The position numbers and the translations under genes are program-made. From the IMG/VR virus record IMGVR_UViG_3300033463_000008: a stretch of 64,000 bases of DNA. One strand, given 5' to 3'. The notes beneath the pieces are model-generated. The model was not told the origin of the DNA. It was given only the letters and a program-made list of their open reading frames with translations, and did not search any database. This document shows, piece by piece, positions 13,584 to 59,522 of the stretch (within the stretch, counting starts at the first letter, position 1; the number at the start of each line of letters is the position of its first letter). This stretch comes from a virus (taxonomy: Duplodnaviria; Caudoviricetes).

Positions 13584-13609
13584 GATGTAGTTTTCGAATG
13601 AGGTTAAGT

Positions 13610-14740
13610 ATGTCAGAAAAAACTCCATCTCTTGTAATGTTTAATACCGCCACTAGGTTCCGTTCCGCGATTTCGTTCCTGTATTCATCGACCAGGGATG
13701 ACAACATGAGGGCTCACGTCTGGACCGACAAGGACTCTGATGGCATTGTGATTTTGCATGTTCAGACTGAACATGGTGTCTATGTAAACACGGACTCCAC
13801 ATTGAAGTCCGAACTCCTTGATTGTGATGCCTGGGTCAATTTGCATGATTTCTGCGAACTATGCCGAGAAGTTTCCCAGGAAAACAATGTCACCCTTTGG
13901 GTGGATGGCGGGCGCCTTTATGTAGCGTCGTCCTTCAATGAAGACTTTGAAGGGTTTGAACTTGAATGCTACTGTGAGCCCGTTGAGTCGTTCGAATATG
14001 ACGATATGGGGGACAGCATTGATGAAACAATCAAGATTGAACAGGGTTCATTCTCCATCGTGACGGACAGCTCGTTTGACTTTGAATGGATGGAAATTCA
14101 CCGTCACGAAGGGTTGCTTTCTTACCGCTCCGGCAAGGACAAGGTTGTTCTCGCCACTGTCGTTGCTTCACTTTCTGGGCATGACGGTGTCGAAGTGAAC
14201 AAGGGCCTTCCGGATTTCGCAATTAGGATTCCATGCGACCTTTTCCGTATCATCCCGATGCTTGAAGTTTCCCAGGAATGTACCCTTAATCTTGACTACA
14301 AGAATAAGCGTCTTCGCATTGCCGGTGAAGTCATGCGCATTGATTATTCCTACAAGGAACCGGAATTTCCAGCAATGTCATCCGAAGGGATGACCGACTA
14401 CATGAAGTTTGATACCGCCGCGATGATTGCTACCATTGACACGATTTATCGAGTGAACTACAAGAACCCGAGTGCCATTGTCAAGATTACCCCGGTGGAT
14501 GAAGGGCATGTTTCTATCGAGTTCAAGGTGGAAGGCCGCTATGGTGCAACTGTGACCATGGGCGAAGTCCATATGTTCGATCTGGAAAAGTCGGTTGAAC
14601 TGTCGATGGATATCATTACGATTATGATCCGCAACTGCAACTGCAAGAATCTGCTATTGAAGTTGGGCCCGGATGACAAAATGATGCTTTGTTTCAGCAA
14701 CCAGCTGTTTGCTAGAAAGGTGTATTATCTTGGAAAATAA
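13610..14740 (+). CDS. putative DnaN (beta-clamp)-like sliding clamp
   Basis: ~376 aa, three repeated clamp-like domains, EPEFP linker followed by helix/strand pattern of beta-clamp domain III. Confidence 0.55.
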   Translation: MSEKTPSLVMFNTATRFRSAISFLYSSTRDDNMRAHVWTDKDSDGIVILHVQTEHGVYVNTDSTLKSELLDCDAWVNLHDFCELCREVSQENNVTLWVDGGRLYVASSFNEDFEGFELECYCEPVESFEYDDMGDSIDETIKIEQGSFSIVTDSSFDFEWMEIHRHEGLLSYRSGKDKVVLATVVASLSGHDGVEVNKGLPDFAIRIPCDLFRIIPMLEVSQECTLNLDYKNKRLRIAGEVMRIDYSYKEPEFPAMSSEGMTDYMKFDTAAMIATIDTIYRVNYKNPSAIVKITPVDEGHVSIEFKVEGRYGATVTMGEVHMFDLEKSVELSMDIITIMIRNCNCKNLLLKLGPDDKMMLCFSNQLFARKVYYLGK

Positions 14741-14782
14741 AATAATCGTTGCAAATGCAACGATTATGTGCCAATAGATGGG

Positions 14783-14814
14783 ATAAGCGGTGTATTTGCA
14801 CCGCTTATTTTTTA
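14783..14814. terminator. bidirectional terminator between convergent genes
   Basis: ATAAGCGGTG-loop-CACCGCTTAT + T tract. Confidence 0.65.
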
Positions 14815-34424: not shown

Positions 34425-34620
34425 TGGCAATGATTTAAAAATTATGAACTACCCACCGGCTAAAGACCGGTGGGTTTCAGTAACCACCGGTGCAACCAGT
34501 TGAATTTCCCGCATCACAGCACCACTGCTTTTTAGGTCGTTAAGACGGTCATCCACAGTTGGGTTCTCCGCAAGGCATAGCGGTCGCAAGACCACGGCTT
34601 CCCCGGTTCGCGGGGTACCT
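34425..34620 (-). ncRNA. predicted TnpB omegaRNA/reRNA (overlaps tnpB 3' end; guide from flank)
   Basis: Established TnpB architecture; RE hairpin ending GGGTAGTTCAT; boundaries approximate. Confidence 0.55.
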
Positions 34621-35720
34621 TCATTATCTAGTATTCTAAGACCTTCATCAAGTATGTTCTTGGCGGCATTCCAGTCCCTATCTATTACGCTACCACATTC
34701 TAGACATATCCACTCGCGTTCGCTAAGTTTCAATGTATGGTATCTATGCCCACAGTTGTTGCATAGTTGCGAACTGGGGAAGAACCGTCCTACCTTAACG
34801 ACAGTACGGTTATGCCATTGAGCCTTGTACTCTATCATCTTAGTTAGTGTACCGAGTGCCTGATTGGCCAACGCACCAGCAAGACAGCGGTTCTTCAGCA
34901 TTCCCTTTATGTTAAGGTTCTCCATGCAGATTATGTCATAATCTCGGACTAACCTGTGTGATACTTGATGAAGGAAGTTATTCCTTCTGTTACCCAGTTT
35001 TTCATGGGCTGCAGCAAGTTGAATACGGACTTTCTCGTATCGACTGCCGCCTTTCTTCGCCTTTGCGAGTTTCCTCTGCAAATGCCTAATCTTTCGTTCC
35101 GACTTCTTATCGAAATGTGGATTCTTAATCACTTCTCCGTTGGACATCACGATGGACGACTTGATACCGAGGTCGATACCCACACATTCGCCAGTATGTT
35201 CCATTTCCGGCACATCAACATCACAACAAATAGAACAATAATAGTCGCCCTTTCTGCTCTTCTTTACGGTGACATGATAGATTTTAACAATATTTTCGTG
35301 TTCAAATGTCTTGCCGAAACGGCACTTAATTGCACCAACTTTCGGCAGTACAATGGAATTGCCGACTATTAGTTTCTTAATATCCTTGTGACACATAGCA
35401 TTCCGGTAACTCTGTTTGTCCTTCTTGGACTTGTATCTTGGATACTTGGATTTGCCTGCAAAGAAGTTCTGATAGGCTTGGTTCATATCCATATAGGCAT
35501 TAGCCAGTCCTTGCGAGTCGGCTTCTTTCAACCATTCCCATTCTTCCTTAAAAGACTTCAATTTCGGCTGAAAGGACATCTTGGTCTCTTCGTAGATATA
35601 TGACTTAATTCTAAGGCACTGGTTATACACGAAACGACAGCAACCGAAGGTCTTCGCGAAAAATACCTTCTGCGCTTTGTTCGGATATAGCTTGATTTCG
35701 ATGCCTTTCTTAACTATCAT
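34449..35720 (-). CDS. tnpB: TnpB RNA-guided endonuclease
   Basis: KLYPNKAQ..FGCCRFVYN HTH, RuvC GIDLG / MENL / DRDWNAAKNI, CNNC..CLEC Zn finger. Confidence 0.95.
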   Translation of the reverse strand: MIVKKGIEIKLYPNKAQKVFFAKTFGCCRFVYNQCLRIKSYIYEETKMSFQPKLKSFKEEWEWLKEADSQGLANAYMDMNQAYQNFFAGKSKYPRYKSKKDKQSYRNAMCHKDIKKLIVGNSIVLPKVGAIKCRFGKTFEHENIVKIYHVTVKKSRKGDYYCSICCDVDVPEMEHTGECVGIDLGIKSSIVMSNGEVIKNPHFDKKSERKIRHLQRKLAKAKKGGSRYEKVRIQLAAAHEKLGNRRNNFLHQVSHRLVRDYDIICMENLNIKGMLKNRCLAGALANQALGTLTKMIEYKAQWHNRTVVKVGRFFPSSQLCNNCGHRYHTLKLSEREWICLECGSVIDRDWNAAKNILDEGLRILDNEGTPRTGEAVVLRPLCLAENPTVDDRLNDLKSSGAVMREIQLVAPVVTETHRSLAGG

Positions 35721-35729
35721 ACGAAAAAA

Positions 35730-35830
35730 CCTACCGGAACTGGTCCTTCCGGTAGGATACAATGTACCTAAGTACATTTTAAACTCTTCTGCGATGGCAA
35801 GGACCAGTTGCCTTCGTATATCAGTTTATA
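35730..35830 (-). promoter_or_regulatory. late promoter + kissing-hairpin leader of tnpB
   Basis: TATAAACT (35830-35823), hairpin loops CUGGUCC and GGACCAG complementary. Confidence 0.65.
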
Positions 35831-35955
35831 TATGTAGCAAAAATTCCGAAAATAGTCAAGCGGCTTTCATCTCACCCACTAAAGATGGGTGAGTTTTCTC
35901 GCCGCTACATTATAAACTGTACCATGAAAGATTTTTACCGACTGGTGTGTTTATT

Positions 35956-47096: not shown

Positions 47097-49820
47097 ATGA
47101 GTAATGTAAGCGAATCTGCTGAACCTATTGCCGCACCGAAACTTGCCAAAGTGAACAAGCGTGACGGAAGACCACAGACTTTTAATCCAAGCAAGATTGA
47201 ACACGCGATGAAGACCGCGTTCTATGCTACCAAGACTTCTGTTAGTGACGAAGAACTTGATGAGGCGACCAACCGGGTTATTGAAGAAATCCAAAGTTAC
47301 AACACCGCGTCGGTCTCTGCCGACAAGGTGGCCAATGCGGTGAAGAATGTTCTCCGCGAAAAGTGGCCCAAGGCATACGATGCCTATGTGATTTACCGTG
47401 CCAACCGTGACAAGGTTCTTGCGACCAAGAAGGCGATTATCAAGAACATGCCTCTTCTGAACACGGTGCGTGAAATTACAGATGACAAGTACACGTCATT
47501 GAACACGTCGAATATCCTCCGTGACAACGCCAATGAATGTGGCGCAACGCCGGCTGGCGCGTATGGCAAGATTGCGTCTGAGACGAACAAGATGTACAAC
47601 CTGTTGAATAACATCAACGAGAAGTATTCCCAGATGCATAAGGATGGCTACATGCACATCCATGACCTCAACATGTACAACTTGACCTTCAACTGCCTCT
47701 TCGCTCCTATTGGCAAGCTGCTGTCCACTGGTTTCGATTCCGGCACGGGCTTCATTCGCCGTGCTCATTCTGTCCAGAGTGCTGCTGCGCTTACCGCAGT
47801 GATTTTCCAGCTTCAATCCAATCAGCAGTATGGCGGCATTGCATGTGATAACTTTGACTTTGACCTTGCCCCGTCAGTGGATGAAAGTTTCCGTACCCAT
47901 CTCGGCGTTAGGCTAAACGATTATTACGAAGACACTGGTGATGAAAAGTTCAAGGGCTTTGCTGGTGATCCGGAAAAAGACGAAGATAAGGAACGCTGGC
48001 GCAAGCTTCTTTCCGATGTCACCATGAACAAGCCGATTTGCCATTACACCGACCGTTTCCCCAAGAAATGTCTTGAAAAGGCTATCAAGTACACTAACAT
48101 TGAAACCCATCAGGCTATGGAAGCTCTTGTCCACAACCTGAACTCCTTGCAGAGCCGGTCCGGAAACCAGGTCCCATTCTCATCAATCAACTTTGGCCTC
48201 GATACGTCCAACTGCGGGCGAATGGTCAGCCACAACTTGATGCGTGCCCAGTACGAAGGCATGGGTGACGGCCTTACCCCGATTTTCCCGATCTTGATTT
48301 TCAAGCTCATGAAGGGCTATACCAAGTACGAGGGCGACCCGAACTACGACCTGTACAACCAGGCAATCGAATGTCTCGCCCGCCGCTTCTACCCGAACTT
48401 TGTACGTGTTGACTCCTCCTTCAACCTCCCGTATGTCAAGTACGAATACAAGGAAGTCGAGGATGCAAACCCGACGTTCAAGTACCGGGGTAGGAACGAA
48501 GATTTTGAATTCGGCTTCGGCGATTACAAGGCCGGCGAAACCACTGCGTTTGAATACGATGTGGGCAATGGCGACTACTGGGAAGTCGTGTCCAAGACGG
48601 GCGACAAGCTCAAAGTTCGCAAGATTATCCCGAACACCACCATTTCCACGATGGGCTGCCGTACCAGGGTCATCGGCAACATCAACGGACCCGAACAGAC
48701 TACCGCCCGCGGTAACTTCGCGTTCCATACGCTCAACCTGCCCCGTATCGCTATCGAGGCTCACATCAAGAGCAAGAACGAGGAAACCCGTAAGCAGATC
48801 TTCTTCGAAAAGCTCGATGAGTTGCTTGAATGCGCCAAGGATAGCCTCCTCGACCGCTTCAACTTTATCTGTAATACAAAGACCTACGAGAACTTCCCGT
48901 TCACTATGCAGCAGGGTCTGTATCTGACCTCCGATGACAAGAAGCACGCGCTCACCGATTCCATTGCGGAAGTGATGAAGCAGTCTACCCTGTCCATCGG
49001 TTATATCGGCATTGCCGAAGTCATCACCCTCCTTACCGGTAAGACCTTCGGTATTGACCATGACATCGATGACTTTGCACTCTCTATCGTGGAACATATC
49101 CGCGAGTTCTGCGATAAGACCCAGAAGGAAACGCATCTCAACTGGTCGTGCTTTGCAACTCCGGCAGAAGCCGTTGCTGGTCGTTTTGCTTCCATCGACA
49201 AGAACAAGTTCTGCAAGGAAATCATCGAGGAACCGACGGATGACGATGATATGATGACCGGTTGTGAAGGTCATTCGAACCCGAAGATGAGCGATAATGA
49301 CTTTGTTACTGGATGTGAATGCACTTATCCGGATGCCCGTAAGAAGAAGGTTCGCCTGATCGGCGTTAAGGGTCTTGAAGATGTTGACCTCATGAAGATT
49401 TTCGGCAAGGGTTACTATACCAATAGCCATATGATGTATTTCTCTCTGGATACGACTCTTGAAAACAAGATTAAGACTGAGGCGCCGTTCCACAAGATTA
49501 CGAACGCTGGTCACATCTTCTACTACAAGCTTAATGGTGATTTAACTAAAAATGTGCCGGCGGTAAAGGCTGCTATAGATGCAATGTATGAAGGCGACCT
49601 TGGTTATTTTAGTTGTACTATGTCGTCGGATGATTGCATGAAGTGTGGATATCATGGCATAATTGATAACGAATGTCCGAAGTGTGGCTGTAGGGATGAA
49701 GATATGTTTGTTCGTGTTCGCCGTATTACGGGTTATTTAACGGGATCGCCTAGAAAGACGATTTTGAAGTCCTGGAATACTGGCAAGCTTGCTGAATTGG
49801 CAGATCGCAAAAATATTTGA
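47097..49820 (+). CDS. nrdD: anaerobic (class III) ribonucleoside-triphosphate reductase with ATP cone
   Basis: VNKRDG ATP cone, HIHDL..NC, MGCRT, GNFAFHTLNLPR, CxxC..CPKC, RRITGYL glycyl radical motif. Confidence 0.95.
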   Translation: MSNVSESAEPIAAPKLAKVNKRDGRPQTFNPSKIEHAMKTAFYATKTSVSDEELDEATNRVIEEIQSYNTASVSADKVANAVKNVLREKWPKAYDAYVIYRANRDKVLATKKAIIKNMPLLNTVREITDDKYTSLNTSNILRDNANECGATPAGAYGKIASETNKMYNLLNNINEKYSQMHKDGYMHIHDLNMYNLTFNCLFAPIGKLLSTGFDSGTGFIRRAHSVQSAAALTAVIFQLQSNQQYGGIACDNFDFDLAPSVDESFRTHLGVRLNDYYEDTGDEKFKGFAGDPEKDEDKERWRKLLSDVTMNKPICHYTDRFPKKCLEKAIKYTNIETHQAMEALVHNLNSLQSRSGNQVPFSSINFGLDTSNCGRMVSHNLMRAQYEGMGDGLTPIFPILIFKLMKGYTKYEGDPNYDLYNQAIECLARRFYPNFVRVDSSFNLPYVKYEYKEVEDANPTFKYRGRNEDFEFGFGDYKAGETTAFEYDVGNGDYWEVVSKTGDKLKVRKIIPNTTISTMGCRTRVIGNINGPEQTTARGNFAFHTLNLPRIAIEAHIKSKNEETRKQIFFEKLDELLECAKDSLLDRFNFICNTKTYENFPFTMQQGLYLTSDDKKHALTDSIAEVMKQSTLSIGYIGIAEVITLLTGKTFGIDHDIDDFALSIVEHIREFCDKTQKETHLNWSCFATPAEAVAGRFASIDKNKFCKEIIEEPTDDDDMMTGCEGHSNPKMSDNDFVTGCECTYPDARKKKVRLIGVKGLEDVDLMKIFGKGYYTNSHMMYFSLDTTLENKIKTEAPFHKITNAGHIFYYKLNGDLTKNVPAVKAAIDAMYEGDLGYFSCTMSSDDCMKCGYHGIIDNECPKCGCRDEDMFVRVRRITGYLTGSPRKTILKSWNTGKLAELADRKNI

Positions 49821-49829
49821 CGGTCATGT

Positions 49830-49937
49830 TATAAACTCATTGCCGGCACATCGGATAATTGGCGTTCTTCGATGTGAGATGGGTTTTATAGGTGACCCGT
49901 GGTTGGATGAACGCCAATTTAGCCGACTGCGGGTCAC
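49830..49937 (+). promoter_or_regulatory. late promoter + kissing-hairpin leader of endonuclease gene
   Basis: TATAAACT, two stem-loops with 11-nt complementary loops. Confidence 0.7.
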
Positions 49938-49940
49938 TTT

Positions 49941-51053
49941 ATGCTTAATAAGAAATCAATTTATGGTCATCTGTCTAATGAAGCTGACTTAGTGCAGATG
50001 AAATCTTTAAAACCGGTAAATAAATATAATCGGTTAAATTTTAGTTTTAAGTGTTCAGAATGTGGAGAGATTTCATCACGAAACTTACGGACGATAGTAT
50101 TTCCATTTAGATGTCGTAATTGCGTATCTAAACAAACACATACCACGGACGAATACTATGCAAACTATAATAAGAGTATGGTTGAAAAGTATGGCGAAAA
50201 TTACCGTGAGATATTAGATGAGCATCGGAATCAAGTTGTGAAGGAGCGTTATGGTAGTTATTCTGGCATGTTTATCGCAACAAGTGATAAACGAAATGCT
50301 ACCATGAAAGCTAGATATGGGGTTACTCATCCGGCAAAAATTGATGGATATGGTAGAAAATGCGCTGAAACTAAGTTGCAACGGTATGGTGACCCGACAT
50401 ATAACAATCGTACCAAAGCGAAGGAGAGTATTGTTGCCGAATTCGGATCAACTGATGTGTGGTATCAACAAAATGTAATTAAGAGTACGCGCACGAAATT
50501 GATACGATATGGTGATAAGACATATAATAATAGGGAGAAGGCTGCGAAAACATCTCTTAAACGATACGGAGTCCGCGTTCCATCACAGAGTAAGAAGATT
50601 CATGAACGAATGCATTTTAAGTACATTTATAATGATATAATCTTTGATAGTTCGTATGATTTATCATATTATATATGGCTATCTGATAATAACATTGATT
50701 TTGAGTATAGACCGGATGTGCAATTTTCTTATACATATAATGGAAGGACTCATGTTTATAACCCGGATTTTAGAGTTGAAACGAGATTAGTTGAATTGAA
50801 GGGCCGGCAATTCTTCAAGGATAAAAATCCGGATAATGTAATGGTGAACCCATATAATCATGATGAGGATGGATTATATGAAGCAAAACATCAGTGTATG
50901 CTGGCTCACGATGTTGACATTATAGTAGATTGTTCGGAATACGAGAAATATGTTGCCAAACATTATGGAAAGGATTATATTTCTACTTTTAGGAATAAAA
51001 CAATTAAACATAAAAAGCGTAATAAGGTTTGTAATGAATTACAGCAAGATTGA
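49941..51053 (+). CDS. free-standing homing-type endonuclease (Zn finger, K/RYG repeats, PD-(D/E)XK domain)
   Basis: CSEC..CRNC, repeated RYG/KYG units, FDSSYD..YNPDF..VELKG; AT-rich insertion between nrdD and nrdG. Confidence 0.7.
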   Translation: MLNKKSIYGHLSNEADLVQMKSLKPVNKYNRLNFSFKCSECGEISSRNLRTIVFPFRCRNCVSKQTHTTDEYYANYNKSMVEKYGENYREILDEHRNQVVKERYGSYSGMFIATSDKRNATMKARYGVTHPAKIDGYGRKCAETKLQRYGDPTYNNRTKAKESIVAEFGSTDVWYQQNVIKSTRTKLIRYGDKTYNNREKAAKTSLKRYGVRVPSQSKKIHERMHFKYIYNDIIFDSSYDLSYYIWLSDNNIDFEYRPDVQFSYTYNGRTHVYNPDFRVETRLVELKGRQFFKDKNPDNVMVNPYNHDEDGLYEAKHQCMLAHDVDIIVDCSEYEKYVAKHYGKDYISTFRNKTIKHKKRNKVCNELQQD

Positions 51054-51564
51054 TCCGATGTCAATAGTCGATGGGGAAGGCCTTCGGGTCTCACTCTTCG
51101 TCTCCGGTTGCCGCAACCACTGCAAGGGTTGCTTTAATCCAGAGACCTGGGACTTTTCCTATGGCAAGGAATTCGACGCTATTGCCGAGAATGAGGTGCT
51201 CGAAGCATGCCGGCCATCCTATATTGCCGGACTGACTGTACTTGGTGGCGAACCGTTTGAGCCCGAGAACCAGTGGGGGCTCTTGCCGTTCCTTTCCAAG
51301 TTCAAGGAAAAGTATCCTGACAAGACTCTGTGGATGTTTACCGGCTATGTGTTGGATAATGACCTGCTGACTGGGCAGCGCCAGGATATCCATCTCGTAA
51401 CGTCGAACATCCTCAAAACGGTGGATGTCTTGGTGGACGGCCCGTTCATCCTGGAACAGAGGGATATTTCACTGAAATTCAGGGGTAGTTCGAATCAGCG
51501 GATTTGGACACGTGAGGAAATTCAGAAACTTCTCGACAGCATGCCTGCCGCACGAGGCTTGTGA
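51034..51564 (+). CDS. nrdG: anaerobic RNR activating radical SAM enzyme
   Basis: DGEGLRVSLFVSGCRNHCKGCFN, LGGEP, DG.F, FRGSSNQR. Confidence 0.95.
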   Translation: MNYSKIDPMSIVDGEGLRVSLFVSGCRNHCKGCFNPETWDFSYGKEFDAIAENEVLEACRPSYIAGLTVLGGEPFEPENQWGLLPFLSKFKEKYPDKTLWMFTGYVLDNDLLTGQRQDIHLVTSNILKTVDVLVDGPFILEQRDISLKFRGSSNQRIWTREEIQKLLDSMPAARGL

Positions 51565-57222: not shown

Positions 57223-57971
57223 TTATTGAAGCTACAAACCGTTTTGTCTTTACAGAAGTTGCCCGCATGCTGAAGGAAGAGTGCGGTGGCCGGCCTGAAT
57301 TTGCCGACACTGTATTCATCCTCGGTCATGTAGATTCTCGTTGTACCCTGTCAGGTATGCGCAAGAAGTATCCTAACAAGAAACTCGTTGTATACCAGTT
57401 GGAACAGATGTATGACGGATGCAAGTATGCCAATCCGCATGTATTCGAATGGCTTCGTGGTGCAGACGAGGTATGGGACTATGACTTGGACAATATCGAC
57501 TGGCTTGCCAAGAAGGGCATCCGTACTTCATTCCATCCGATGCATTACGCAAGCACTTTGCGCGACGTACCAAGCGTGGAAAAGGATGTCGATGTCCTGT
57601 TCTATGGCTTTCTGACCGAGCGTAGGTCCAAGCTGCTTACTCAGCTTGCCAATGCCGGCTGCAACAAGTGGGCAACGACAATCACCATGGGCATTTCCGG
57701 CGAGAACCTGGCCAAATGGATCGGACGCTCCAAGATTATCCTGAACATCCACGCATACGATAACAACAACCGTCAGGAACAGGTGCGCATGTTCTACCCG
57801 GTAATCAACGGGGCATGTGTCGTTTCCGAGCAGAGTGCCCGTAACTACCTTGACGGCTGTATTACCGAATGTCCGTTGAAGTACCTCCCGGAAACCATAG
57901 ACAACATCCTCAAGAATGACATGTGGAAGAAGCTCGGTGATAACGCTGTCTATAACTTCATGAGGCGATAA
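57219..57971 (+). CDS. GT-B-like glycosyltransferase
   Basis: DVLFYG..ERR, SKIILNIH, EQVRMF..G.CVVSE. Confidence 0.65.
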   Translation: MIIEATNRFVFTEVARMLKEECGGRPEFADTVFILGHVDSRCTLSGMRKKYPNKKLVVYQLEQMYDGCKYANPHVFEWLRGADEVWDYDLDNIDWLAKKGIRTSFHPMHYASTLRDVPSVEKDVDVLFYGFLTERRSKLLTQLANAGCNKWATTITMGISGENLAKWIGRSKIILNIHAYDNNNRQEQVRMFYPVINGACVVSEQSARNYLDGCITECPLKYLPETIDNILKNDMWKKLGDNAVYNFMRR

Positions 57972-58262
57972 TCAACTACCCACGGGTATAAAGACCCGTG
58001 AGTTTGGGGTAACTCAGACTCATAGTTGATTAGACTCAGTGAAGCAGAGAAATCTGCTGAACTACGTTAGGAAGGTCATAACACCTACGGATGTACGGTC
58101 AAGTCTGTAGCTCTGTTGAATGTCATTAAACAGTCCTGATGGGTAGGGACAGTGTGGCGTTCATGACAAGCCTTCCTAACATTGTCGATGACCACCCACA
58201 GGGAGTAATCCCTGCATTACCTATTAAGTTAGGTTAAAAAACAACGAAAGGATAACGACTAG
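57971..58262 (+). ncRNA. IscB omegaRNA (HEARO-type) scaffold
   Basis: ~290-nt structured region starting ATCAACTACCCAC, closing TAGTTGAT, CTACGTT and ACATTGTCGA motifs, directly upstream of iscB. Confidence 0.85.
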
Positions 58263-59522
58263 ATGGTCTATGTACTGAACAAATACGGCAACCCTCTGAT
58301 GCCTACCACTAGGCACGGCAAGGTCCGTCGTCTGCTCAGGAAAGGTCTCGCGGTTGTTGTCGATTACCGTCCATTCACCATTCAGCTTGCTTACGACACG
58401 CCGAACGGCGTGCAGGAGGTCAGTCTAGGAGTAGACGCGGGTACGAAGCATGTAGGTTTCTCCGCCACTACCAAGAAGAAGGTACTTTTCGAAGCAGAAT
58501 TACTGCTGAGGTCGGATATCGTGGAGAAGCTATCCACGCGAAGGGAGTTCCGTCGGACCAGAAGGAACAGGAAAACTCGCTACCGCAAGTCCAGGTTCCT
58601 GAACAGGACCAAGAAGCCAGGGTGGATTGCGCCTTCCGTACGGCAGAAGGTGGATTCCCATATATACTGGATTTCGAAGATATGTAAGATTTTACCTATC
58701 GGGGAGATAACGGTGGAGACGGCACAGTTTGATATTCAACTGTTGAAGGCCCAGGAACAGTGCCTTCCGTTGCCGCATGGAACCGACTACCAGAAGGGTG
58801 AACAGCTCGGATTTTCTAACGTAAGGGAATACGTGTTGTTCCGGGATGGGCATAAATGCCAGTGCTGTAAGGGCAAGTCCAAGGACAGGAAGCTGCGGGT
58901 CCACCATATCGAAAGCAGAAAGACAGGTGGAGATGCACCTAACAACCTCATCACGTTGTGTTCGGAATGCCATGCTAAGTATCATAGGGGCGAAATTAAG
59001 CTGCCTAAGAATGTCAGCCGCGGGGCTTCCTTGAAGGATGCTGCCGTAATGGGCATCATGCGGAAGTCGGTGTTCGGTCAACTGGATAAACTGTTCGGTG
59101 ATGCAGTTCCTTGCCACGAGACGTACGGCTACATCACCAAGTATGCCCGCACCAAGGCAGGCCTTCCGAAGGACCATACCATAGACGCCCGTTGCATCAG
59201 TGGCAATACGGGTGCCGAGTCCGACGGGCATTACTGGATTATCCGCAAGTTGCGTGCCAACAACAGGCAGCTGCACAAGGCATCCATACTCAAGGGATGC
59301 ATTCGGAAGAACAACCAGGCACCTCGGGAGGTACATGGATATAGACTGATGGATTATGTTGTTTATGCCGAACGACCTTGCTTCGTGAATGGCCGCAGGC
59401 AGTCGGGATACTTCTCTCTATCGGATATTTCCGGACATGTCCTTGCCGGTTCGGTGAACTATAAGCACCTTAACTTAATTAACCACAACAACACTAATAT
59501 AATGGAAACGAGAGAACTATAA
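58263..59522 (+). CDS. iscB: IscB RNA-guided endonuclease
   Basis: PLMP motif, RuvC LGVDAG / VETAQFD / HTIDA, RRxRR bridge helix, HNH HHIESR..NNLITLC..H. Confidence 0.95.
   Translation: MVYVLNKYGNPLMPTTRHGKVRRLLRKGLAVVVDYRPFTIQLAYDTPNGVQEVSLGVDAGTKHVGFSATTKKKVLFEAELLLRSDIVEKLSTRREFRRTRRNRKTRYRKSRFLNRTKKPGWIAPSVRQKVDSHIYWISKICKILPIGEITVETAQFDIQLLKAQEQCLPLPHGTDYQKGEQLGFSNVREYVLFRDGHKCQCCKGKSKDRKLRVHHIESRKTGGDAPNNLITLCSECHAKYHRGEIKLPKNVSRGASLKDAAVMGIMRKSVFGQLDKLFGDAVPCHETYGYITKYARTKAGLPKDHTIDARCISGNTGAESDGHYWIIRKLRANNRQLHKASILKGCIRKNNQAPREVHGYRLMDYVVYAERPCFVNGRRQSGYFSLSDISGHVLAGSVNYKHLNLINHNNTNIMETREL

Follow-up and report, generated by a model that had tools for sequence, protein, structure and literature searches.

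No selfish genes are commoner in large phages than those for homing endonucleases and TnpB/IscB nucleases, yet how the carrier is protected from them is known for a few T4 genes only. How such a gene can be held in check is the question raised by a locus in a 64,000-nucleotide stretch of DNA from a phage of the class Caudoviricetes (IMG/VR record IMGVR_UViG_3300033463_000008; the whole stretch is referred to as the window). At this locus, a highly structured region (49830-49940) precedes the ATG of a mobile nuclease gene at position 49941. Comparative sequence analysis supports the conclusion that this region and the leader of the tnpB gene in the same window are real structured RNAs with loop-loop complementarity kept by covariation. 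It also supports the view that the design is common to unrelated selfish nuclease genes, namely DUF7487 genes, three or four TnpB lineages, and genes for NUMOD3 and DUF559-type homing endonucleases. The explanation that we favor for region 49830-49940, and to which we give about an even chance, is that it forms the 5' leader RNA of a mobile nuclease cassette and throttles translation by means of an intramolecular kissing complex.

Analysis of the region revealed a promoter-like motif, TATAAACT (49830-49837, plus strand), which resembles the T4 late promoter and is kept in the window and in three related contigs (L078, L001, and L002). The motif is followed on the same strand by two hairpins. 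Hairpin H1 (49847-49855/49868-49876) has a 9-bp stem, including one G-U pair, and a 12-nt loop. Hairpin H2 (49892-49906/49923-49937) has a 15-bp stem, including three G-U pairs, and a 16-nt loop, and 3 nt separate its end from the ATG. The loop-1 segment (49857-49867) and the loop-2 segment (49909-49919) are perfect 11-nt complements of each other, with a duplex energy of -15 kcal/mol. A preliminary description of the window had given the coordinates, both stems, the loop complement, and the spacing to the ATG, all of which were exact. The minimum-energy fold of 49821-49960 calculated with RNAfold contains H1 and H2 and has an energy of -49.8 kcal/mol (z = -4.2); none of 200 shuffled sequences matched this stability. 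The antisense strand of the same leader folded much worse (-33.7 kcal/mol). An advantage of the sense fold, amounting to 4 to 18 kcal/mol, was seen in 11 of the 12 leaders of this type described below and arises because of the G-U pairs, which the preliminary description had taken to point to selection at the RNA level. An outer stem (49830-49840/49879-49890) proposed in the same description is present in the window, L001, and L002, but the minimum-energy fold does not include it, and L078, the closest relative, has lost it.

To search for this architecture, a descriptor was written that specifies two adjacent hairpins with loops sharing a Watson-Crick complement. It ranked the 49830 leader first in the window, and the tnpB leader was among the next matches. 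Summed stems of at least 20 bp occurred in none of 40 dinucleotide shuffles of the window, and the 49830 leader has 26; matches like the tnpB leader were expected 0.15 times per shuffle. The motif TATAAACT itself occurs 12 times in the window versus 1.2 expected copies, almost all of them shortly upstream of start codons. The kissing leaders are about 96 to 105 nt long, compared to a median of 22 nt at other TATAAACT-driven genes. Opening of the -18 to +12 region costs 16.4 kcal/mol at the 49941 start and 7.7 to 20 kcal/mol across the kissing leaders, compared to a median of 6.2 and a 90th percentile of 11 kcal/mol at the other TATAAACT-driven genes. The loop-loop duplexes of the kissing leaders range from -7 to -15 kcal/mol. 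In each of the 12 leaders, 0 to 12 nt separate the promoter motif from the start of H1; most of them have a T-rich sequence directly after H2, and Shine-Dalgarno (SD)-like AGGA or GAGG lies inside the 3' arm of H2 in several relatives.

Homologous leaders were found in L078, a 4-kb rumen contig with a 98% identical nuclease, and in L001, where the protein is 53% identical and the gene order nrdD-nuclease-nrdG is kept. In the alignment of the window, L078, and L001, 96% of the structure cells were paired, versus 30 to 44% when the partners were slid. Over the whole leader, four pairs had changed on both sides, and several more showed G-C/G-U/A-U changes. A C-G to U-A compensation was present in H1 of L001 and L078. 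In H2, three pairs had changed on both sides and four on one side among the three sequences, and 97.8% of the cells were paired. The loop segments were invariant apart from one mismatch in L001, though H1 sits in a diverged flank. Because the loop-loop helix does not vary among these close relatives, covariation support for it comes from distant ones. L002 and L081, in which the cassette also lies behind nrdD, have the same layout with the loops GTGGAACTC/GAGTTCCAC, and L034, L036, and L144 have the loops GAGCGAG/CTCGCTC and 12- to 13-bp stems that covary too. In DUF7487 cassettes, at least nine distinct complementary loop pairs were found; non-cognate pairs reached 6 nt in 0.7% of cases. A search of IMG/VR with the loop 16-mer returned 20 matches, 19 of which were chance matches without a partner loop and 1 of which was L001's own contig.

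The second leader of the window precedes tnpB (34449-35720, minus strand; Pfam OrfB_IS605, Cas12f1-like_TNB, and HTH_OrfB_IS605). Position 35720 is the likely true start of tnpB, since the Pfam HTH domain does not start until residue 20 of the longer open reading frame (ORF). A motif scan located TATAAACT at 35823-35830 on the minus strand. It is followed on this strand by H1 (35796-35812; arms GGCAA and TTGCC around the loop CTGGTCC, extended by ACGA/TCG), by an additional hairpin, M (35762-35777; loop TTAG), and by H2 (35730-35756; 10 bp, loop GGACCAG), then T6 and the ATG at 35720. The 7-nt loops are complementary, and the match can be extended to 11 nt. The topology and loop complementarity are as reported in the preliminary description. 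An in-frame ATG at 35777 (minus strand), 57 nt upstream of the likely start and in the 5' arm of hairpin M, gives a 442-amino-acid (aa) call in ORF finders; it is not conserved in the L061 or G001 leader.

Nine distinct tnpB-type leaders were aligned, comprising those of eight TnpB elements (73 to 95% identical) and that of one unrelated endonuclease gene. The 7-bp loop-loop helix was paired in nine of nine leaders, and three of its positions had changed on both sides, giving the loop pairs CTGGTCC/GGACCAG, CTCGCAC/GTGCGAG, CTGGTAC/GTACCAG, and CTAGCCC/GGGCTAG. Covariation over the whole structure was higher than in any of 500 shuffles, and slid controls were 20 to 40% paired. All five core pairs of hairpin M (columns 69-73/78-82) were compensated in the endonuclease leader of G001. 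The analogue of the outer stem was 93% paired in these leaders and showed no double changes. A terminator scan called the tnpB H2 (10 bp, six G-C pairs, 7-nt loop, T6), and a scan with the H2 pattern added one new contig. Covariation, which the preliminary description had named as a check, was thus seen in compensated stems and in double-changed pairs of the tnpB loop-loop helix.

The association of these leaders with nuclease genes was determined in 818 kb of sequence from the window phage and its jumbo-phage relatives G001 (175 kb), G002 (355 kb, 93% complete), and G003 (224 kb). In 103 pairs of TATAAACT and a downstream gene, a leader was present at 12 of 14 nuclease genes versus none of 89 other genes (Fisher P = 6e-14); the preliminary description had suggested testing for such an enrichment. 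All high-scoring matches with TATAAA just upstream and an ATG-initiated ORF just downstream precede nuclease genes. Leader-bearing DUF7487 genes occur in the window, G001, and G002; the G002 copy (L002) fell under the score cutoff and was recognized by eye. Genes of the lineage TnpB-a carry a leader in the window, G002, and G003. Leaders were also present at two further TnpB lineages (G001, 18.7 kb; G003, 141.8 kb and 115 kb), at a gene for a divergent TnpB-like protein (G002, 16.7 kb), at a NUMOD3 homing endonuclease gene (G002, 10.5 kb), and at a zinc-finger/NUMOD3/DUF559 endonuclease gene (G001, 25.3 kb). When nuclease loci were collected by homology search, 13 of 19 had a leader. As for the remaining loci, an IscB gene has HEARO RNA in place of a kissing leader, and the leaders of two TnpB lineages are short and plain.

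The IscB-type gene is the third selfish nuclease gene of the window. HEARO RNA (Rfam RF02033, 137 bits) at 57971-58199 lies directly upstream of the sequence for the RRXRR/HNH protein at 58263-59522, which thus has a guide-RNA scaffold as its 5' region and no kissing-loop leader. One TnpB lineage (G001, 92859-93953; G002, 243908-245002; both minus strand), 40% identical to TnpB of the window, has TATAAACT followed by a short, unstructured, A-rich leader. In these phages, TnpB genes can thus do without a kissing leader.

Comparison of leaders across nuclease families showed that unrelated nuclease genes have leaders in common, which behave as exchangeable modules. A complete TnpB-a leader, with H1, M, and a near-identical H2 (reference, window 35718-35835, minus strand), heads the unrelated zinc-finger/NUMOD3/DUF559 endonuclease gene of G001 (L191:5515-5635, minus strand). 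Likewise, the GAGCGAG leader heads DUF7487 genes (L034 and L036) and a TnpB-like gene in G002 (L172:16662-16762), with no homology of the flanks. Inside each genome, all loop pairs are different (two in the window, three in G001, four in G002, and three in G003).

Other candidate features of the leaders were rejected. A leader peptide was considered for the window and L078, where a frame from an upstream ATG runs through H2, and was dismissed because the frame relation differs in L001 and leaders of the tnpB family do not conserve the upstream ATG. A conserved anti-start loop upstream of H1 in leaders of the window type amounted to a 5-nt A/U match. A promoter between H1 and H2 of the window was dismissed as well, as TATAGGTG matches the motif at four of eight bases. 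The absence of an SD sequence, mentioned in the preliminary description, holds but does not set these genes apart; an SD-like motif precedes no more than about a third of the TATAAACT-driven genes in either group (33% of the nuclease genes and 33% of the other genes).

Two further structures with complementary tips were noted. In G002 (L172:5835-5905), the loop of a 10-bp hairpin is perfectly complementary over 12 nt to the sequence directly preceding the ATG of a 202-aa ORF, for which Pfam gave no match; this represents a loop-to-start-region contact at a gene not known as a nuclease gene. At 14742-14811 of the window, two tandem perfect hairpins with a 7-nt complement between their tips follow the ORF at 13598-14740. 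They score on both strands, are followed by T-runs, and probably represent paired terminators for both directions, not a leader.

More distant relatives carry cassettes with a different arrangement, here called T4-type. Nineteen to 20 distinct cassettes of this type were compared, with nucleases of the same family as the DUF7487 gene. Their order is a conserved AAGGACAG box, hairpin A, hairpin B (G+C rich, with a T-rich tail), the late promoter motif TATAAATA, hairpin C, an SD sequence, and the ATG. The loops of B and C are complementary in every cassette (19), and the eight variants are distinguished by matched substitutions (e.g., TTCCCG/CGGGAA, TTCCAG/CTGGAA, TTACCG/CGGTAA, and TTGCCG/CGGCAA). 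Non-cognate B/C pairs reached 6 nt in 0.7% of comparisons. RNAfold closed some of the 6-nt B loops with a U-G pair and so misparsed 4 of 19 cassettes, which were checked by eye. The A loop is complementary to the SD-to-start region over 6 to 8 nt in 19 of 19 cassettes, with ten different loops and a non-cognate mean of 4.2 nt. The motif TATAAATA lies between the kissing hairpins B and C. Because the hairpins flank the promoter and the A loop covers the SD sequence and start codon, the element in these relatives must act on read-through RNA and against translation. As read from the sequences, both contacts would form only on the upstream read-through RNA, and the late transcript would keep hairpin C and a free ribosome-binding site (RBS). 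In every T4-type cassette, the AAGGACAG box comes first and is invariant, with the anti-RBS hairpin right behind it (L015:2682-2796; L023:2330-2450; L168:3076-3199, minus strand; and 16 others). Candidate roles of the box are those of a processing site, a recognition site, or a border of the cassette.

The nuclease gene of the window (49941-51053, plus strand) encodes a 370-aa protein with a DUF7487 domain (Pfam, 3.9e-14) and is assigned to PHROG 3339, homing endonuclease. It lies between nrdD for an anaerobic ribonucleotide reductase (47097-49820, plus strand; Pfam NRDD 6e-146, ATP-cone, Gly_radical) and nrdG for the activase (51034-51564, plus strand; Pfam Fer4_12, 4.9e-46). In a nuclease-less allele, present in contigs of the public rumen runs X20 and X7, window position 51032 follows straight after a diverged nrdD end, and TAATG couples the nrdD stop to the nrdG start. 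Since nrdD is joined directly at 51032 in this allele, the segment from the nrdD stop to 51031 (about 49818-51031, plus strand), with motif, leader, and ORF, represents one inserted cassette. Identity to L078 is 97 to 100% over the ORF and 60 to 85% in both flanks, and the resulting identity island (49926-51065) is the mark of a homing-type gene transferred recently. Twelve aligned homologues show an N-terminal zinc finger, repeated KYG modules, and a C-terminal PDF...E-x-K...YEAKHQCM block. According to these motifs, the product is a putative free-standing, homing-endonuclease-like nuclease of the PD-(D/E)XK-like type. The protein has weak matches to T7 endonuclease I and TnsA-N. The nuclease ORF reaches 20 nt into nrdG (51032-51053), so that nrdG may now be translated either in coupling or in competition with it. 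Also within this ORF is a sigma-70-like site (50953-50981); such sites are no commoner than in shuffled sequences. Some DUF7487 homologues (L025:2662-4431 and L016:2785-4482) end in a fused N6/N4 DNA methyltransferase-like domain (C-terminal; Pfam N6_N4_Mtase, 7e-5) and represent a nuclease-methylase architecture inside a homing-endonuclease-like family.

The sequences originate from bovine and ovine rumen. A DNA search of 50,697 cultured-phage genomes gave no match for 49700-50200, and a search of the nuclease protein against cultured phages gave weak matches to Lak megaphages only. For the RNA libraries X19 and X20, Logan contigs alone were used; they were near-empty over most of the cassette and uninformative on expression, and those of X20 carry the nuclease-less allele.

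In the mechanism that we favor, RNA made past the T4-late-like motif would fold into the 5'-proximal H1 and the long H2 abutting the start codon. The H1 loop would base-pair with the H2 loop and thereby form the kissing complex. H2 would bury the nucleotides just upstream of the AUG that the 30S subunit needs, and docked H1 would lock H2 shut in one compact stacked structure. The nuclease would then be weakly translated, in trace amounts, from every transcript that crosses the leader, and RNA polymerase would run on into nrdG. The leader would thus act on the RNA in cis, with a negative sign, and at the level of translation initiation. The preliminary description had proposed a shared switch that restricts nucleases to late infection. 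The shared design at nuclease genes was confirmed, but the timing does not follow from the anatomy, because in the window the motif precedes both hairpins and both promoter-derived and read-through RNAs carry the full structure. An arrangement with this logic is seen only in the T4-type relatives, which have TATAAATA between their kissing hairpins.

Several observations weigh against this mechanism. With the promoter motif upstream of both hairpins, the anatomy gives no clue as to how or when the block is lifted. A complete 11-bp helix cannot form between closed loops of 12 and 16 nt; about 6 to 8 bp are sterically likely, or the stems would open. The alignment of the window, L078, and L001, with a loop-loop helix that is invariant except for the single L001 mismatch, is uninformative on kissing. 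Six of the 19 nuclease genes have no leader. Finally, the T-rich bases after most H2s and the canonical-terminator H2 of tnpB fit a transcriptional gate equally well.

Transcription attenuation is the main rival, though an unlikely one in our estimate. Here, H2 and its T-rich tail would be an intrinsic terminator, and docking of H1 on nascent H2 would set its frequency, so that mostly an RNA of about 95 nt and occasionally a full mRNA would be made. The tnpB H2 passes the terminator scan, and its terminator, with no co-directional gene upstream of the leader, can act on its own promoter only; the T-rich start after H2 in most of the 12 leaders points the same way. The scan did not call H2 of the 49830 leader an intrinsic terminator, as it has a 16-nt loop and a TTTAT tail, and hairpin C of the T4-type relatives is a weak AT-rich stem without a T-run. 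An efficient terminator at this locus would, moreover, cut nrdG off from nrdD transcripts, and the two genes are coupled by TAATG in the nuclease-less allele. It is rather improbable that a common factor, such as a Rom-like RNA-binding protein, RNase III, or phage IF3, reads the stacked kissing complex whatever its letters and switches all nuclease genes together; the loop sequences would then serve as barcodes that prevent cross-pairing and let a resident cassette silence a co-infecting copy in trans. Antisense-like control in trans, as in P1 c4, seems a little less probable again. It proposes that H1 (or A/B) acts as a small RNA that pairs with the H2 or C loop and the start region of transcripts of the same cassette, including those of co-infecting genomes, with the loops as barcodes. 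Different loop pairs inside each genome would be expected of barcodes, and tnpB elements that are 92 to 95% identical differ at three of seven loop positions, which suggests selection for orthogonality. In addition, hairpins A and B of the T4-type cassettes lie at the 3' end of upstream transcripts, before the T-rich tract and the promoter. However, H1 of the window lacks its own terminator, pairing within one molecule will outcompete that in trans, and template-switch repair of inverted repeats could co-vary both loops too.

A role in RNA stability or processing we consider improbable. The 5' hairpin and the stacked kissing complex would shield the mRNA against decay that depends on the 5' end or serve as a processing site of the RNase III type, in keeping with the position of H1 at the extreme 5' end of the promoter-derived RNA (0 to 12 nt past the motif in 12 of 12 leaders) and with the 15 to 19 bp of H2 in several leaders. 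Such a role leaves unexplained the loop complementarity, the restriction to nuclease genes, and the anti-SD hairpin of the T4-type relatives. Least credible of all, and very improbable, is a feature at the DNA level, i.e., a cruciform, an operator at which a protein binds the inverted repeat, or a portion of the site for recognition by, or immunity to, the nuclease. The 11-nt inverted repeat is indeed invariant in three relatives, and I-TevI binds an operator near its promoter (PMC2988022), a precedent for this idea. Against it, G-U pairs make the fold strand specific, the orientation is always sense to the gene and between promoter and ATG, and the loops covary while the stems change independently. 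RNA-guided TnpB and protein-guided endonucleases also use the same design.

If translational throttling by a kissing complex is correct, it would provide a checkable rule for the taming of selfish nucleases: two hairpins whose loops must pair. The loop pairs would be a natural set of orthogonal RNA kissing pairs that could serve expression tuning. Mobile nuclease cassettes of metagenomic phages could also be annotated by means of the leader, which has a bearing on the balance of TnpB protein versus guide RNA as well.

The leaders were also compared with known RNA elements. A search of Rfam 15 gave no match at either leader, with chance miRNA and snoRNA matches far below the thresholds; HEARO at 57971-58199 was the sole match in the window. 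No match to the Rfam C4 family was obtained at the gathering score or at E values up to 10. Full-text literature searches yielded no report of kissing loops before homing endonuclease or TnpB genes, and the running text of a catalogue of more than 10,000 viral candidate RNAs makes no mention of such a motif (PMC10690425). A kissing-loop leader on selfish phage nucleases is thus apparently unpublished.

The closest systems are the homing endonuclease genes of T-even phages and their relatives (I-TevI, I-TevII, I-TevIII, segB, and Aeh1 mobE), in which RBS-sequestering hairpins contain embedded late or middle promoters (PMC2988022). As in these systems, a selfish phage nuclease gene has its own late-type promoter and a stable RNA structure at its start, and the free-standing endonuclease gene lies between ribonucleotide reductase genes. 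In the T4-type relatives, the inhibitory partners are likewise in the read-through RNA and not in the late RNA. Sequestration of the RBS, a feature of the T4 hairpins, is found in the window leader as well, where H2 ends 3 nt from the ATG and opening of the start region costs 16.4 kcal/mol versus the median of 6.2. Unlike the T-even hairpins, however, the window leader has its promoter upstream of the whole structure, so that the late transcript keeps the inhibitory strand. Two hairpins joined by a covarying loop-loop helix replace the single local hairpin, and the design also serves TnpB genes, with modules that are exchanged among unrelated nuclease genes.

A second comparison concerns the c4 antisense RNA of P1 and P7 (Rfam C4, RF01695), which makes two loop-mediated contacts (summarized in PMC12197685). 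In both c4 and the leaders, an upstream, co-transcribed, structured RNA offers loops that can pair with sites farther downstream in its own operon, the ribosome-binding region among them; specificity lies in the letters, which vary from relative to relative. The T4-type cassettes, with their A loop-RBS and B loop-C loop pairings, mirror both c4 contacts. The window leader differs in that its sole contact joins the two loops and no conserved loop in it could pair with the start region; the targets, moreover, are nuclease genes instead of an antirepressor gene. The CI RNA of P4 is a system comparable to c4.

Kissing complexes are familiar from plasmid copy-number control, in which RNA I and RNA II of ColE1, with Rom, and CopA and CopT of R1 pair intermolecularly from convergent transcripts. 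The tnpB, GAGCGAG, and T4-type leaders resemble them in having fully complementary 6- to 7-nt loops, the optimal stacked geometry, with letters that set specificity. In contrast to the plasmid complexes, both hairpins are on one strand of one leader; the window nuclease leader, in addition, has unusually long loops (12 and 16 nt) and 11-nt complementarity. Mobile elements such as IS10, with its fold-back inhibition, and IS200, with a left-end terminator and an RBS-occluding stem-loop, also shield a nuclease or transposase gene from outside transcription by RNA structure at the start codon and a left-end terminator. The pairings in those elements are simple ones, either local or linear; we know of no loop-loop interaction described for them and of none shared across element families. 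The leader therefore differs from each of its closest counterparts in a defining feature: from the T4 hairpins in the position of the promoter, from c4 and CI in the covariance model and the two contacts, and from the plasmid complexes in intermolecularity.

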